A stretch of DNA of 64,000 bases, taken from positions 1 through 64,000 of the forward strand of contig JBBQZX010000025.1 in the NCBI GenBank assembly GCA_038207335.1, read 5' to 3'. Source of the DNA: Chthoniobacterales bacterium (GTDB lineage: Bacteria; Verrucomicrobiota; Verrucomicrobiia; Chthoniobacterales; Chthoniobacteraceae). Shown here in pieces: positions 9,001-27,000 of this stretch. The position numbers are program-made. Numbering within the stretch: the first letter of the stretch is position 1; the number at the start of each line of letters is the position of its first letter.

Positions 9001-12000
9001 GCGTGGCGGACTGCGCCTCGCGGTGAAGGATCTCATCGACATGAAAGGCGAGGTGACCACAGCGGGGTCCGAATATTTCGCGAAAAGCGCGCCGCCTGCA
9101 AAGCGCGATGCCGCCTGCCTCGCAATCGCACGAGAGCGAAATGTGGCCATCGTGGGAAAAGCGAATACCACGGAGCTTGCGATCGGCGTCTCGGGGATCA
9201 ATCGCTATTTCGGCACGCCGAAAAATCCTCTCACCCGGCGACGCAACTTGATCCCCGGCGGCTCCTCGTGCGGCCCCGCCGTAGCGGTGGCGAGCGGCAT
9301 GGCGGATGTGGCGTTTGGTACCGACACGGGCGGCTCAATTCGCGTGCCTGCGGCGTGTTGCGGCGTCCTCGGGCTGAAGACTACGTTCGGTCTCATCCCG
9401 CTCGACGGCGTCTATCCCATCGCGCCGACGCGGCTCGATACGATCGGGCCGCTGGCAAAAGATATGCCGCGGCTTGTGCAGGGGATGGATTTGCTGCAGC
9501 GCGGTTTTGCGGACCGGTATCGCGCGGCGGTCGCGGCGCGTCCCGCGGCCGGGCGGATTAAAGTCGGGCGTCTGCGCGTGCCGGGCGCCGATCCGAAAAT
9601 CGAGCTCGCGATCGACGAGGCACTTGCCGCGGCCGGGTTTCAGGTCGTCGAGCTCGGCAACGATTTCAAGAAGGCGTGGGTGCAGGCGGAGAAAGATGGG
9701 AACACCGTTTCGGCATCTAGCGCGTGGCTTTCGGATGCGAAATTCCGCAGCCAGCCTGGCATTCGGACGAGGACGAAAGCCGTCGTTGCGCTGGGCCAGT
9801 TTGAATACACCGTGAACTATCGCGACGCGCTTCGGCGGATTCCCGCGTGGCGAGTCACGCTCTCGCAAATGCTGCGACGCGTGGATTTCATCGCGCTGCC
9901 AACGATCAAACAACTCCCGCCTACGCTCCCACTTTTCGGAGGCACCGCGCTTTTCGAGGCAAAAGTCCTGACGATGCAAAACACCGTCGCGGTGAATCTG
10001 GCGGGCAACCCCGCGCTCGCGCTGCCCATCCCCGTCGCGGACCGCCGCGTGCCAGTCACGAGCCTGCAATTGATTGGCCCGCGTCTCGGCGAAGCGCAGC
10101 TCCTGAACGCCGCGCGCCTCGTCGTGACCGGCCTCGCGACTCCCGGTCCACACGGCCTCGCGGCAGCGCGGCGGCGATGAGGAAGTAGCCCATGCATCCC
10201 CTCCCTTATCTCCTCCGCGCCGCGCTCGTCCTCCTTTTCGCCGGCAGCGCGCTCGGCGCCGAGTCCCCCGATGAACTGATGAAACGTGGCGACGCCCTCG
10301 ACCAGCGGCTCGCGGCTGGCGAAGCGCTGAATTTTTACCTGCCCGCAGAAAAGCTTGAACCAAAGAACGCACGCCTCCTCACCCGCATCGCCCGTCAGTA
10401 CCGGCATCTCATGGCGGATGCGCCATCGAATGCCGAGAAACTGCGCCTCGGTAGCATCGCGCTCGACTATGACAGGCGCGCCGCCGCAGCCGATCCCAGC
10501 GACTCGGACGCACAGCTTTCCGTCGCAATCTCGCTCGGAAAAATGCTGCCGCTTCTCGGCTCGAAAGCGCAGGTCGAGGCGTCTCCACGCATCAAGGCCG
10601 CGGCAGACAAAGCTCTCGAACTCGACCCGCGCAATGACCTCGCATGGCACATCCTCGGCCGCTGGAATCGCATCCTCGCCGACGTGGGTGGGGTGAAGCG
10701 CGCGCTCGCCGGAGTCATCTACGGATCGCTCCCCGTTGGCTCTAACGCTGAGGCCGCGCGCTGCCTGGAAAAGGCGGTTGCGATCAATCCGAACCGCCTC
10801 ATTCACTACGTTGAACTCGGCCGGATTTACGCACAGATGGGGCGAAAGGACGACGCCCGCGGGATGCTGAAAAAGGGTCTCTCCATGCCCAGCCTCGAGA
10901 AGGACGACCCCGAGGCTAAGAGCCAGGCACGGGACGTCTTGAAGCAACTTCGGTAGAGTTGAGCTCCAGATCCGGCGAGGTATCAGCGCGTGGAAACGCT
11001 CACACCCCGCCGATGAACTCGCGATGCCAAAGCTGCGTGGCGACGACCGCGCAGAGGCCCATCTCGACGGACAGGCGCGGCATCGAGCCGACGCGCATCT
11101 CGCGGAATGCGCGGCGCCAGTGGGTTACTTGTTTCACATCGAAATAGCCCGTTTTGCGCAGCGCCGCTTCGCTCAAGAGCTCGGCCACGAATGCCGGCTC
11201 GGGGTCCATGTGAAAGCTGTCCAGCGGCGCGCGGAAGATGACCTTATGCCGCCGTGCGATCGATTTCGGCACCCACCGCTCGGCGAGTTGCCGCAGGAGA
11301 TATTTGTCCCGAAAGCCGCGCAGTTTCCAGCTCGGGTGCAGCTTCGCTGTGAAGTCGAACACATCTTCATCGAGAAACGGATACCGCACTTCGACCGACG
11401 AATTCATCGCCACACGGTCGCCTTTCGCCTGCAGTAAATGGCCCGCGAGCGTCACGCGGCCTGCGACCCAAATGCCGCGATTTAGCGGGTGCCATCGCTT
11501 CGCACGCTCGATCGGGAATTGCAGATCGGCCCACGGATTCGACTGTGCCAAGACTTCGCGCATCGATTCGGAATAAAATCGCAGCTTCGAGATCGCGAGC
11601 AGCCCGTAGGCATCCACCCACGCGTTTGGCCCGCCGACCGATGCCTCAACCGTGTGTCGCCACGAGGCCGGATAGTGCGGCACATTTTGCAACCGCAAAA
11701 AGCCTCGCCGCGCAACATCCGCGAGCGGCAGTCCGGGAATCGCATTCAGCACGCCGATGATTTTAGCGAGTTTGTACCAAGGGTATCCGAGCAGCCACTC
11801 GTCCGATCCCTCGCCCGTAAGCACAACTTTTTGGCCGCACGCGTGGACCTTTCGCGCGAGCTGCAGCAGCGCCGCGCAGGAGGTATCGATCACCGGGGCC
11901 TCCGCCGCTCGGATCAGTTCAGGATACGTCTCCAGCGCATCGCTCGCACGGAAATCCTGCACGATCGGCGGTTTCGTCCCGACGTGCCGCGCGGTCTCGT

Positions 12001-24000: not shown

Positions 24001-27000
24001 CGAGCGGATGCGGAAAAAGCACGCTGCTGCAAATGCTCGGCGCACTCGACCGGCCGAGCGCGGGCTCGCTTGCCTACAGCGGAAAGTCGCTCGGCGACAT
24101 GGCCGATGCCGCTGCGTATCGCGCCCGCGAGATCGGCTTCATCTTCCAGGCGTTTCATCTGCTGCCGACTTTCACGGCGCTGGAAAATGTGCAAATCCCG
24201 ATGTTCGAGACGGACCGTCCGCTCGCGGAGCGAAAAGCGCGCGCCATCGAGCTGCTGACCTCGGTCGGGCTTGCACAACGGCTCGATCATTTCCCATCGA
24301 AACTCAGCGGCGGCGAACGGCAGCGCGTGGCGATCGCGCGCAGCCTCGCCAATGAGCCGTGCGTGCTGCTCGCAGACGAACCTACGGGCAATCTCGACAG
24401 CGAAAGCTCACTCCACATTTTGACCCTCCTCACGCGGCTGCACGCCGAACGGCGCATGACGCTCGTGCTCGTGACGCACGACATGACCGTGGCCCGCCGC
24501 GCCTCGCGCGCGCTGCGGATGAAGGACGGTCGCATCGTTTTCGACGGCAGCCCCGCGGAGTTGCACGCGGAGATTTAAAATGACTTTTTTCTCCGTCATC
24601 CTCCGCGGGCTTTTGCGTCGGCCCGTCCGCACCGCGCTCACACTCGGCGGCATCTCGATCGGCATCGGCGCGGTCGTCGCGCTCGTCGGCATGTCGCGCG
24701 GATTCGAGACGAGCTGGACGGATGGAATGAAGTCTCGCGGCACCGACATCGTGGTCAACAACATGGGCACCTCGCTCGTGCCGAAGCCATTTCCCGCAGC
24801 AGTGCGCGACCGCATCGCGGCGCTGCCTGGCATCGCGGCGACTTGCGAAATTCTGGTCGAACTCGAGAGCGTCGAGAGCGCAGACATGACGATCATCTCG
24901 GGGCGCGAATGGGGCGGATTTTCGTGGGGCAATCTGAAGCCGGTGGAGGGACGCTTGCCGCTGGATGCCACGGAAAAAGCGGCGGTGCTCGGCAAGTCGG
25001 TGGCTGAGATTTTAAAAAAGAAAATAGGCGACCCGATACAGATCGAGACGGAGGAACTCACCGTAGTCGGGATCGTCGATGGCGGCGCAGTCGTGGAAAA
25101 TGGATCGGTGATCCTGTCGCTGCCGCTGCTCCAGCAGATCACAGGGAACGAAGGTCGCATCAACATCATCGACGTGCGGGTGGCGCCCGGCTCGAACGAG
25201 GCGGCGGTGCGCGCGCTGTGCGACGAGATCACGCGGCGGGTGCCGGAGGCGCGCGCGTCGCCGGCGGATGAGCACATTCGCAACAGTCAGAGCTTTCGCA
25301 TCATCAACGCGATGAGCTGGGGCACGTCGCTGCTCGCTGTGCTCGTCGGCGTGCTCGGCGTCATGAATACGATGCTGATGACGGTCTTCGAGCGGCGGCA
25401 GGAGATTTCGATCCTGCTCGCGATCGGCTGGCGGCGCGCCCGCGTCGTGCGGATGATCCTGTGCGAATCCGCGCTGCTCGGGTTCTTCGGCGGCATCGTG
25501 GGCTCGGCACTCGGCGTCGCCGGGATGAAAGCGCTCGAGAAAACGCCGGCGATCCGAGGTCTCTTGAAGCCGGACCTGAGCGCGGGACTCATCGCTGCAT
25601 CGGTCGGCATCGCGGTCGTCGTCGGCGTTGTCAGCGGGCTTTACCCGGCGTGGCGCAGCTCGCGGCTGAGCCCGGCCGCGGCGCTCCAGGGCTGAGCGCA
25701 CCGCCATGCCGGGCGCGCGCGGCGAATAGACTTTCGTGAATACACTCCTCCGCACCGCCGCCGCCGCCCTCGTCTCTGTCGCATTCGCCAGCGCCGCCGA
25801 GCCGGAAATTTCCGCGGCTGAGCTTGCCGGCCGGCTCGCCGCAAAGCAGCAGGACGGCTCCTCGCTCATCCACTTGAAAATGGACAACTCGGGCGCGGCG
25901 GGGGGCACGCTTCAGCTTCAGATCAAGTCTCGCTCAACCCCCGGAGGCGCCGAGCTCGTCTATCAAGTCCTCTGGCCAAAGGAGCGCAAAGGCGAAGCCG
26001 TCCTCTTGCGCCGCTCCGAAAATCAGGCGGCGACCGGCGCGGTCTTCACCCCGCGCGGTGGGGTACAGGGCCTCGGCCCAAAGCGAATCGACGAACCGCT
26101 CTTCGGCAGCGCATTGTCCTACGAGGACGCGATCGAGAACTTCTTCGCGTGGGGCCAGCAGGCGATCGCCGGTATGGAAACTGTCGATCGCGTGCCGTGC
26201 CAAATCCTCGAGTCCAAACCCGGCCGCGGCGACCACTCCTACTACACCAGCGTCCGCACTTGGGTGGACACGCGCCGCATGGTCCCGCTCCGCGTGGAGA
26301 AATACGCGCGCTCCGACAAGCCCGTCCGCTGGATCGAAACCACGCGCGTCGCCAACGACGACAACGGCCGCCCCGTCGCGGCGAACATCACAGTCCACGG
26401 TCCCGGCGGTGCCACCACCGACCTCGATGGCTCAAAAATCAAGCACGGCGCAACATTCACCGATGAGGAATTCACGCCCGATGGATTGAAAAATCCGTGA
26501 GGCTGCCGCAACGCGGCGAATGCTCGTCGCTCTGAAAGAACCCCCCGCCCGTGTGGCTACTTCGGCGAAGCCGTCTAGTTGCCGCCACCCTGAGACACCA
26601 CATTCCCACCGCCTTGGGCGACGAAGATGACGCGGTCTCCGCGAGCGGGAGGACTCCGACGCCGTTGGTCAGTGCGAAGCCGTCGGTGACGGCGATCATC
26701 ACGCCGTGCGAGGAAACGCTCAGGCTGTTCGTAGGACCGTCGAGGTCGGTGTGATTGTGGCCGGAGATTGCGCCGCCGATGCCGTAGGAAAGACGCCGAG
26801 GCTTTCCCCGCCCAACCAACGTAATTGCCGGACCGCACGTTGGTGGAGAGCACGCGCGCGACCGCGGAAGCCGCGTTATGGGCGGAAACATAGGAAGGGG
26901 CGGTCTTCGATGGTAAAGGCGTCGAAATCGAGCCCCCGGCGACACTGCGCTCCCTCGGGTTGACCGCACGCGAGGCGGAAGTGCTTCATTGGATGACCGA

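Follow-up and report, generated by a model that had tools for sequence, protein, structure and literature searches.

Parts of the gene set described here recur in several known systems. Mycobacterial Mas/Pks2, with PapA, DrrABC/MmpL and LppX, join a single fully reducing module to a stand-alone condensation-fold transferase, an ABC exporter and a LolA-fold carrier; we know of no capping pair in the PDIM pathway. SupA, a polyketide synthase (PKS), resembles the verrucomicrobial enzyme in domain order, and the sup accessory genes include an ACP and a PPTase. This small mono-modular PKS of sponge symbionts, with a similar domain set, is proposed to make mid-chain methyl-branched fatty acids (PMC4245539). 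In the gladiolin pathway, as in those of etnangien and sorangicin, the starter is cryptically amidated: an asparagine-synthetase homologue and an amidase-signature hydrolase flank the PKS (GbnA, GbnB, GbnC, GbnM), and GbnC and GbnM are described as placing an amide made from glutamine on the terminal carboxyl and removing it last to leave the terminal acid (bioRxiv 10.64898/2026.04.24.720606). In aurantinin biosynthesis, the account of Art28 and Art9 has the terminal carboxyl masked as a methyl ester (PMC8302727); there, as with BioC and BioH of biotin, a SAM methyltransferase masks the group and a membrane-located esterase frees it. In the fungal SoaA-SoaB-SoaC pathway to sorbic acid and sorbamide, an AsnB is reported to amidate the released acid of a highly reducing PKS (PMC13284220), and the free-standing condensation (C) domain Bamb_5915 of enacyloxin is described as releasing the chain from an upstream carrier via short terminal docking segments (PMC9113145).

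We analysed a window of 64,000 nucleotides (the whole stretch of DNA under study, positions 1 to 64,000 of contig JBBQZX010000025.1 from a Chthoniobacterales bacterium), in which a genome-wide survey's note had placed a conserved lipid-synthesis unit between 11000 and 26500. All genes named there are in place and intact (Table 1), with the AsnB gene head to head with the PKS operon. The unit is larger than proposed, taking in genes for an amidase and a TPR protein to the left of position 11000, and the interval includes a PEMT/ICMT gene that is a local addition outside the conserved unit, matched in 0 of 34 full-flank loci and with one 29% homologue adjoining remnant locus L117. The 546 related stretches counted previously were reproduced, as were, for the 34 full-flank loci of 80, the numbers for the desaturase (34), the PKS methyltransferase domain (34), AsnB (31), FtsX (31) and the LolA-like protein (30), while the ABC ATPase was recovered in 31 loci rather than the 32 given earlier (coverage >50%). 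At the same coverage, the AT, DH, MT, ER, KR and ACP domains were found in all 34 loci and KS in 33, and the exporter is missing from 3 of the 34. An identity of 65-80%, claimed for the whole unit, suits the PKS domains (medians 70-81%), AsnB (74%), the ABC ATPase (70%) and the permease (68%), but not the C domain (61%), the desaturase (61%) or the LolA-like protein (53%).

Table 1. Genes of the cluster on contig JBBQZX010000025.1, with supporting matches and proposed roles.
Gene product	Coordinates	Strand	Basis and remarks
Amidase-signature hydrolase, predicted lipoprotein	8852..10180	+	PF01425 E 5e-59; proposed periplasmic uncapping enzyme
TPR protein, secreted, PTPIP51/RMDN3-like fold	10192..10956	+	PF21033 above cut-off; candidate periplasmic lipid carrier
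AsnB-type glutamine amidotransferase/amide synthetase	11000..12934	-	PF13537 + PF00733; proposed capping enzyme
PEMT/ICMT-family membrane methyltransferase	13110..13730	+	PF04191, PF04140; local addition
Single-module cis-AT PKS KS-AT-DH-cMT-ER-KR-ACP, 2548 aa	13826..21472	+	domain search
Free-standing condensation (C) domain	21484..22815	+	PF00668; proposed chain-release acyltransferase
Membrane di-iron desaturase/hydroxylase	22812..23774	+	PF00487
LolD/MacB-type ABC ATPase	23811..24578	+	PF00005
MacB/FtsX/LolCE-type permease	24580..25695	+	PF12704 + PF02687
LolA-like periplasmic carrier with signal peptide	25736..26500	+	PF17131 E 5e-17; N-termini

The PKS is a highly reducing, single-module, cis-AT type I enzyme with KS-AT-DH-(cMT)-ER-KR-ACP on one chain and its catalytic motifs intact (DTACSS, HGTGT, GHLE, GHSVG, HPFH, GAGTGG, IDD, YGAAN, GLDSL); among full-length orthologues, the KS cysteine motif is kept in 70 of 71 and the ACP motif in 71 of 71. 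The chain has no TE and no loading domain, and ends in a conserved acidic C-terminal tail (DLDALSDEDLDLLL). Iterative use of the module is suggested by a single observation, the lack of partner modules in the annotated loci. Its AT motif, HPFH, is malonyl-like and the cMT is embedded in the same chain. The likeness to Mas/Pks2 extends to the single fully reducing module, the stand-alone condensation-fold transferase and the ABC exporter with LolA-fold carrier, but branches would come from the cMT with a malonyl-type AT rather than from methylmalonyl, the place of the transferase is taken by an NRPS-type C domain, and the PKS scores 1197 bits against NF041183, where the cut-off is 2400. The sup accessory genes, reported from sponge symbionts, are absent from the verrucomicrobial locus.

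The C domain carries an intact HHAIADG, as active PF00668 members do (HHxxxDG), with H151, H152, D156 and G157 invariant in 54 of 54 sequences, and begins with a basic N-terminal helix. These C domains form a clade of their own at 45-67% identity, the next matches being NRPS-embedded domains at about 33% or less. Complex prediction for the ACP-tail and the C domain gave a score of 0.45 (best control 0.00), with runs agreeing in at least 84% of contacts and a partner pLDDT of at least 63; of 157 solved complexes 116 attain the mark used, as do 2 of 215 mismatches, although only 18 of the 157 do so at or below 0.60, together with both mismatches. This hints faintly at docking and, as carrier-C complexes have already been solved, may reflect likeness only. 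The single N-terminal helix on C and the helical carrier tail recall PAX-type docking as described in one account (PMC9113145); set against the description of enacyloxin, no beta-hairpin docking domain is evident (C starts about 20 residues in) and no acceptor pathway is encoded. The desaturase has His boxes HEASH, HQTHH and HGVHH, conserved in 104 sequences.

On the export side, the best NCBIfam match of the ABC ATPase is LolD (TIGR02211, 246 bits, below the cut-off of 308), and hydropathy gives the FtsX-type permease four hydrophobic segments. The TPR protein has a PTPIP51/BstC-like fold: it matches 7CC7 at the sequence level (E 7e-11), and its model (pLDDT 94) aligns with 7CC7 at Z 26.6 and rmsd 2.6 over 224 residues, with a TPAT transporter subunit at Z 21.8 and with a bacterial sterol transporter at Z 21.1. 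Close orthologues were present in 30 of 30 genomes with both AsnB and amidase. These data support a conserved, fully reducing, C-methylating single module accompanied by a free C domain and by lipid export genes of Lol/MacB type.

The cluster is widespread but dispensable: a C orthologue occurs in 110 of 400 genomes from the order, 1 of 7 genus relatives and, in a phylum sample, 3 of 400 genomes. The envelope lipid proposed in the survey's note is suggested by the exporter, but because the distribution is patchy the product is not a core envelope component. Nor is AsnB universal in the cluster. Among the 110 C-positive genomes, 77 have AsnB and amidase, 27 have neither, 2 have AsnB only and 4 amidase only, and 276 of the 290 C-negative genomes lack both; AsnB and amidase are gained or lost as a pair, with amidase orthologues also present in 6 genomes that have no C or AsnB.

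Both members of the pair keep intact motifs. AsnB scores 414 bits against TIGR01536 (cut-off 267), and its 55 orthologues keep the glutaminase and synthetase motifs (MCGI in 54, SGGxDS and GEGxDE in all 55); the host genome has two additional paralogues, and the closest named homologue is a rhizobial plasmid AsnB (38%) adjoining an acyl carrier protein gene. The linked amidase has a signal peptide, a lipobox (LVG-C25) and an intact triad (Lys59, Ser138, Ser162), the lipobox Cys and the AVKD/GGSS/GSxR columns being kept by 95% or more of 120 homologues, and it remains in the locus across four gene orders. Since the amidase is a predicted lipoprotein and the AsnB sequence lacks a hydrophobic segment, AsnB is predicted to work on one side of the inner membrane and the amidase on the other, the exporter lying between them.

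Most genomes with neither enzyme encode an alternative. A SAM methyltransferase was found in 21 of these 27, the other 6 loci being cut by contig ends, as well as in 3 of 4 amidase-only, 0 of 2 AsnB-only, 4 of 30 sampled AsnB+amidase and 0 of 17 C-negative genomes; the genome of this window lacks the methyltransferase/hydrolase set. In 18 of the 21 it directly adjoins a gene for an alpha/beta-hydrolase, a family that 6 of the 17 C-negative and 14 of the 30 AsnB+amidase genomes also contain; of the hydrolases examined, 20 of 20 have GHSMGG and 19 of 20 a lipobox pattern. No Pfam family matches the methyltransferase, which looks similar to proteins of the PF12147 type. Its fold is that of class I SAM enzymes: 3OCJ aligns over 230 residues (Z 17.2, rmsd 3.5) and the CurJ CMT reaches Z 16.9. 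The closest folds, with tied Z scores, mix C-methyltransferases of PKSs with enzymes that methylate O, N or S, and motif I has Lys at its usually acidic position. Only 1 diagnostic KS position in 480 distinguishes the AsnB/amidase type from the methyltransferase type, as would be expected if both make the same chain. The methyltransferase-only loci form one clade in a quick C-domain tree (14 rows, SH-aLRT 97); the exchange may therefore have happened just once, in which case the genome counts exaggerate it. The survey's reading of AsnB as the maker of a permanent lipid amide finds no support here in that form. AsnB is tied to a predicted periplasmic amidase, and in one lineage a methyltransferase and a putative esterase stand in for the two; together this points to a temporary carboxyl cap.

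The two enzyme pairs match the two published strategies for carboxyl protection in PKS pathways, which supports this interpretation. Gladiolin-type systems are described as trans-AT lines of several modules, loaded through a dedicated ACP and released by a TE; the verrucomicrobial cluster has one cis-AT module, C-domain release, a lipoprotein amidase and Lol-type export; the only PF00550 match on the host contig is the ACP of the PKS itself (stand-alone ACPs lie on other contigs), and no dedicated loading ACP was seen in the annotated loci at an ORF cut-off of 80-90 aa, at which a small ACP could be missed. By family likeness, this AsnB is a putative counterpart of GbnC/MgsD. The Art28/Art9 and BioC/BioH arrangement, in which a serine alpha/beta-hydrolase adjoins a methyltransferase of the class I SAM type, occurs in relatives but not in the genome of this window; Art28 and the verrucomicrobial methyltransferase are likened by role, not by sequence, and no counterpart of aurantinin's described loading ACP (PMC8302727) was seen in the loci annotated at that cut-off. 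SoaA-SoaB-SoaC shares an iterative highly reducing single-module PKS, a trans-acting release enzyme and an AsnB masking the product carboxyl, but differs, as far as its description goes, in hydrolase release, the lack of a cMT and amidation after release, and names no deprotecting amidase or lipid exporter (PMC13284220).

We judge it somewhat better than even (roughly 0.55) that a carboxyl on an exported, reduced, methyl-branched polyketide chain is capped inside the cytoplasm and uncapped once in the periplasm. AsnB would use ATP and glutamine to convert a carboxyl to a primary amide, by the chemistry of its family. In the route we prefer, possible though short of even odds, it would amidate malonyl-ACP to a malonamyl primer, leaving the free end of the chain as a masked omega-carboxyl. 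The module would extend this with malonyl-CoA, SAM-derived methyl branches and full reduction, presumably over several rounds; the C domain, whose catalytic motif is present, would dock on the tail of the PKS and pass the chain to some amine or alcohol, giving a bipolar lipid once a head group is added to the omega-carboxy chain. The membrane desaturase may introduce a double bond or hydroxyl. Judging by families and fold, ABC and FtsX would then extract the neutral product to the LolA-like and TPR carriers, and the lipoprotein amidase, placed outside the cytoplasm by its sequence, would free the acid; in one lineage the class I SAM methyltransferase and lipoprotein alpha/beta-hydrolase would set and remove a methyl-ester cap. 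That every element holds jointly (one iterative cis-AT module primed with capped malonyl, an omega-carboxy methyl-branched long chain, an amide cap in most lineages with a methyl-ester cap in one, removal of the cap only in the periplasm by a lipoprotein, and a PTPIP51/BstC-like TPR carrier) we put forward tentatively, as on the unlikely side. Amidating the sole ACP would compete with elongation, and the fungal AsnB described as acting on a released acid (PMC13284220) indicates that AsnB need not act on the starter; amidation after release, of the chain's own or the head group's carboxyl, would be a second, rather improbable route.

A PDIM/sulfolipid-like envelope lipid whose amide stays, made by elongating a fatty-acyl primer that the C domain joins to a head group, with the amidase serving turnover only and the methyltransferase/esterase an unrelated accessory of one lineage, would suit the Mas-like single module, free acyltransferase and LolA-like export; the methyltransferase-only type is moreover one clade, and both cap sets coexist in some loci (L022, L054, L055; G656, G660, G700, G722). 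We nonetheless consider it improbable: it leaves unexplained both the methyltransferase in 21 of 27 AsnB/amidase-less against 0 of 17 C-negative genomes and the lipoprotein nature of both hydrolases, and the recurring neighbours that were examined yielded no acyl-AMP ligase. That lipoprotein location, together with carriers for hydrophobic cargo, also fits transacylases, for which the amide or methyl ester would be an acyl donor passed via an acyl-enzyme to an envelope acceptor, cross-linking or anchoring the product in the ATP-free periplasm. Amidase-signature enzymes include ClbL, matched here by homology, which has a coupling role in colibactin. Since primary amides donate acyl groups poorly, the precedents GbnM and Art9 are described as hydrolysing, and the loci examined show no recurring genes for building an acceptor, we regard such transfer as very unlikely.

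The capping chemistry is also compatible with a different product role, that of a diffusible antibiotic or signal (a fatty acid or N-acyl compound that becomes active upon export) rather than a structural envelope lipid. The patchy occurrence and broken copies in G445, G546 and G589 (where long-read errors are possible) would fit, as would self-protection by the cap in aurantinin (PMC8302727), suggested likewise in the account of the sorbic acid pathway (PMC13284220). Against it stand an exporter of LolD/LolCE/LolA type with a second candidate lipid carrier, the absence of a conserved outer-membrane channel or adaptor gene in the loci annotated, and high sequence conservation with a module invariant across families, and we hold this role to be unlikely, if still worth weighing.

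Under the preferred reading, this gene set of many soil and freshwater Verrucomicrobia probably makes a methyl-branched fatty molecule with a capped acid, exported from the cytoplasm and then uncapped, using two cap-and-uncap enzyme pairs by lineage; no description of the product was found in the literature searched. Carboxyl protection, known from large trans-AT lines that make antibiotics, would then also serve a lipid synthase of one module, with two protection chemistries as exchangeable parts of one pathway and deprotection coupled to export across the inner membrane. Without the amidase, a strain should build up an amide 0.984 Da lighter than the acid product, and the sister lineage's methyl ester would be 14 Da heavier. 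The pathway would offer a short route to branched omega-carboxy acyl chains, a possible soil biomarker, and a new lipid class of the Chthoniobacterales (Ca. Udaeobacter among them), an order of abundant soil bacteria whose chemistry is little known. Although large PKS clusters were judged unlikely in a study of Ca. Udaeobacter (PMC7343977), records of that name carry the cluster.

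All core genes that the genome-wide survey's note had named at the locus were found with their open reading frames intact, in a source genome of 5.17 Mb (94.7% complete), and the 546 related stretches it had reported were recovered again by a scan of genome contigs. Gene counts per locus, taken from the 34 full-flank loci among the best 80 of these 546 relatives, agree closely with its tally: the AT, DH, MT, ER, KR and ACP domains are each present in 34/34 and KS in 33, alongside the desaturase in 34, AsnB and FtsX in 31 each and the LolA-like gene in 30; the ABC gene was counted in 31/34, against 32 in the note. 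Median identities across the full-flank loci were 81% for KS, 74% for AsnB, 70% for ABC, 68% for FtsX, 61% for both the C domain and the desaturase, and 53% for LolA. The cluster is real and conserved. Its polyketide synthase (PKS) has the intact-motif domain order KS-AT-DH-cMT-ER-KR-ACP, with an AT that we take to be malonyl-like (GHSVG, HPFH) and a KR that we take to be B-type (IDD), and the 2548 residues include neither a loading domain nor a TE. The neighbours of its KS-AT are cyanobacterial-type cis-AT PKSs, CurL is the best full-length PDB match, and plasmid matches reach at most 46% identity. The free C domain carries the motif HHAIADG, and H151, H152, D156 and G157 are invariant across 54 sequences. 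Two PPTase genes both lie elsewhere in the window's genome, and a promoter and terminator scan gave no signal above shuffled sequence. A membrane methyltransferase gene between AsnB and the PKS was rejected as a core part, being present in 0/34 full loci; with weak NCBIfam matches to LmtA and isoprenylcysteine methyltransferase, its product may serve locally as a second enzyme for capping, or for tailoring.

The interval 11000-26500 proposed for the cluster does hold the core genes, but the unit is wider: in 20 further loci, and then 19 more, two genes further left, encoding an amidase and a TPR protein, travel along with it. In most related loci (L numbers) the amidase lies upstream together with the TPR gene; it follows LolA in L047 and L097-L099 and the desaturase in L123, and in L022 the amidase, AsnB and TPR gene are all shifted downstream. 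The amidase N-terminus is a lipoprotein signal, its Cys and the catalytic columns being kept in at least 95% of 120 homologues and a strict lipobox pattern in 76 of them. Of 400 genomes of the order (completeness at least 80%), 87 carry AsnB and 94 carry the amidase; the 110 genomes with an orthologue of the C domain (C-positive) divide into 77 with both genes, 27 with neither, 2 with AsnB only and 4 with the amidase only, and 276 of the 290 C-negative genomes have neither, although these genomes are kin and hence not independent, so that P values on such counts carry no weight. The model of the TPR protein (pLDDT 94) best matches the PTPIP51 TPR domain (Z 26.6, rmsd 2.6, 224 residues), with lower scores for a Thermus TPR protein (Z 22.1), a subunit of a TPAT transporter (21.8) and a sterol transporter from bacteria (21.1). 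According to the available part of PMC10243591, PTPIP51 has been reported to transfer lipids, but this is disputed. Close TPR orthologues, at a cut-off of E 1e-68 or better that was chosen after the data were seen, occur in 30/30 sampled genomes with AsnB and amidase, 3/27 with neither and 0/17 C-negative genomes, and a looser paralogue is widespread among the genomes sampled. Its modelled fold makes the TPR protein a candidate carrier. A remnant locus in another genome (L117:8751-13986, in G048) holds the amidase, TPR, desaturase and a PEMT-like gene, with PKS, C and AsnB absent from the locus. Directly left of the amidase in the window, a comM/yifB-like gene is flanked on both sides by degenerate partial 3' copies (74-87% identical, one inverted), which may mark old insertions.

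Coordinates of the amidase and TPR genes and of further features in the window
Feature	Position	Strand	Remarks
comM/yifB-like partial 3' copy	1687-2071	-	degenerate
1560-aa ORF	2141-6823	-	no Pfam match; between comM-like gene and one remnant copy
comM/yifB-like gene	6732-8300	-	
comM/yifB-like partial 3' copy	8396-8806	+	degenerate
Amidase	8852-10180		predicted lipoprotein; co-travels with cluster
TPR protein	10192-10956		signal peptide; co-travels with cluster
PEMT/ICMT-family membrane methyltransferase	13110-13730	+	
PKS start codon	13826		ATG
ACP segment of the PKS	21056-21469		
Fragment right of LolA	about 26900-27150	+	resembles a LuxR-type helix-turn-helix; contig C24 has 70% similar DNA
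Three long ORFs (1881, 844, 956 aa)	52343-63897	-	strong GC skew

The AsnB-less loci hold an alpha/beta-hydrolase and a 370-aa protein that has no Pfam match but shows methyltransferase features in its sequence. The model of this protein (pLDDT 72) has a class I SAM methyltransferase fold, matching 3OCJ (Z 17.2, rmsd 3.5, 230 residues), AprA MT2 (17.1) and CurJ CMT (16.9); the listed fold matches include no chain resembling BioC or Art28, the methyl-ester capping enzyme of aurantinin, an absence compatible with kinship to either. A search of 80 chosen genomes (27/27 with neither AsnB nor amidase, 6/6 with just one of them, 30/77 with both and 17 C-negative) found the methyltransferase in 21/27 'neither', 3/4 amidase-only, 0/2 AsnB-only, 4/30 'both' and 0/17 C-negative genomes, and in the 6 'neither' genomes without it the contig ends on AsnB's expected side of the cluster. 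Within the 21 'neither' genomes, methyltransferase and hydrolase adjoin in 18 and share a locus in 2, with a contig end in 1; the paired hydrolases carry GHSMGG in 20/20 and a lipobox pattern in 19/20, the hydrolase family by itself being non-specific (6/17 C-negative, 14/30 'both' genomes). Because either AsnB and amidase or methyltransferase and lipoprotein hydrolase are present, each locus type can be read as a cap/uncap pair: judged from sequence, each would have one enzyme in the cytoplasm that could cap a carboxyl and one lipoprotein that could remove the cap. Loci with the methyltransferase only form a single clade (14/74 rows, SH-aLRT 97) in a quick tree of 74 of the 110 C sequences, which left out two duplicates and the AsnB-less loci outside any methyltransferase group. 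Some loci contain both capping sets, and in part of the methyltransferase lineage the PKS is on a different contig or separated from C and desaturase; the window's genome has the amide pair only. The idea of a KS pocket that sets one locus type apart from the other was dropped, as just one position differs. A 1285-aa patatin-like protein with three patatin stretches (L054:14321-18178, L113:6108-9959, L166:3214-7056) lies between methyltransferase and lipoprotein hydrolase in several loci.

In the accessible parts of the sources, polyketide pathways are described that use these same two pairs to mask a terminal carboxyl. Gladiolin synthesis relies on GbnC, a homologue of asparagine synthetase that amidates succinyl-ACP, and on an amidase that strips the amide last; the authors were unable to assay GbnC itself in vitro (bioRxiv 10.64898/2026.04.24.720606). 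For aurantinin, the chain is primed by an O-methyltransferase acting on malonyl-ACP, and an esterase in the membrane releases the acid (PMC8302727). The cluster differs from these in having neither a trans-AT line nor a loading ACP. By analogy, it would join gladiolin/aurantinin-type protection to a Mas/PapA/LppX-like lipid layout while being a member of neither; against the Mas/Pks2 model its PKS scores half of the cut-off. From the genes, motifs, folds, sequence signals and co-occurrence observed, we infer substrates and an order of steps in which the product carries a carboxyl whose cap would be added in the cytoplasm and removed in the periplasm, a reading to which we assign a probability of about 55%.

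For the origin of the capped carboxyl we tentatively prefer, at clearly less than even odds, a route in which a capped malonyl starter would prime the PKS and yield an omega-carboxy chain, because malonyl-ACP is a substrate for members of both capping families and an ACP gene adjoins the closest AsnB among plasmid sequences (38% identity); counting against it, no loading ACP was found on the window's contig or among recurring neighbours. Plasmid searches meant to place AsnB among GbnC/MgsD-type enzymes returned only rhizobial ACP-linked and NRPS-linked AsnBs. The cap could instead be added after release, on the chain or a head group, which we rank second as the less likely route; in the accessible part of PMC13284220, a fungal AsnB is described that turns the acid released from an iterative HR-PKS into its amide. 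The chain would be released by the C domain docked on the PKS tail. The acidic tail and basic C-domain N-terminus are both conserved, and fit PAX-type docking as far as the available text of PMC9113145 describes it. Complex prediction for the ACP-tail with the C domain scored 0.45 against 0.00 for the control (contact agreement between runs at least 84%, partner pLDDT at least 63), on a scale whose mark is reached by 116/157 solved complexes and 2/215 mismatches, with 18/157 solved complexes and both mismatches at 0.60 or under; the score may reflect carrier-C complexes already solved. Release by the C domain is supported by the charges of tail and N-terminus and, weakly, by the predicted complex.

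Beyond the core cluster, the analysis contributes an amidase, a candidate carrier and a swap between capping pairs, and these open the product's chemistry to direct test. Within the literature searched the cluster is undescribed, and surveys or supplements may list it; the available parts of PMC7343977, PMC12714770, PMC5826242 and PMC8767328 contain no description, and the survey of Di et al., cited in PMC12714770, may list it.

The C orthologues form their own group at 45-67% identity, the closest sequences coming from Chthoniobacter records; the matches that follow (about 33% or less) are C domains embedded in NRPSs. Because orthologues occur in 110/400 order genomes (9/16 families) and 23/82 of the own family, but only 1/7 of the own genus and 3/400 drawn across the phylum, the cluster is common yet dispensable; the unpublished genome G545 is counted once in each tally. 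All three phylum-wide positives come from one genus outside the order and also have AsnB. An island origin in the window's genome is unsupported, as GC and GC3 match the neighbours and no tRNA adjoins, the absence of a C orthologue from 6/7 genus relatives being the point on its side; no C-domain relatives were found in viral contigs. Contig L020 (1.6 kb), which contains ACP (96%) and C (63%) and is filed under Rhizomicrobium, is probably a binning error, and PKS or C genes split into many frames (L115, L116, L120 and genome G546) may reflect decay or long-read error. In four genomes (G678, G687, G756, G777) there is a second single PKS, about 2100 aa long and 46-49% identical in KS-AT.

The desaturase had no match in the PDB or among plasmid sequences, and its NCBIfam matches to GntB and DesA are weak and far under cut-off. 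Seven of eight other metagenome loci with homologues (35-45%) show no cluster gene, and the remaining one shows an ABC ATPase only; two of the homologues are flanked by genes that, from their sequences, we take to be inorganic pyrophosphatase-like and lepA-like. On these results, the desaturase was dropped as a pointer to the product. Elsewhere in the window's genome, an ORF of 4090 aa encodes an NRPS-PKS hybrid that contains three carrier domains, and adjoins a PPTase (G000:C1, about 29500-40700). A small secreted Thr-rich protein without Pfam match (L096:15282-15785, L097, L115, L005) recurs in some loci between the desaturase and the ABC gene; the window's genome encodes paralogues of it at other places.
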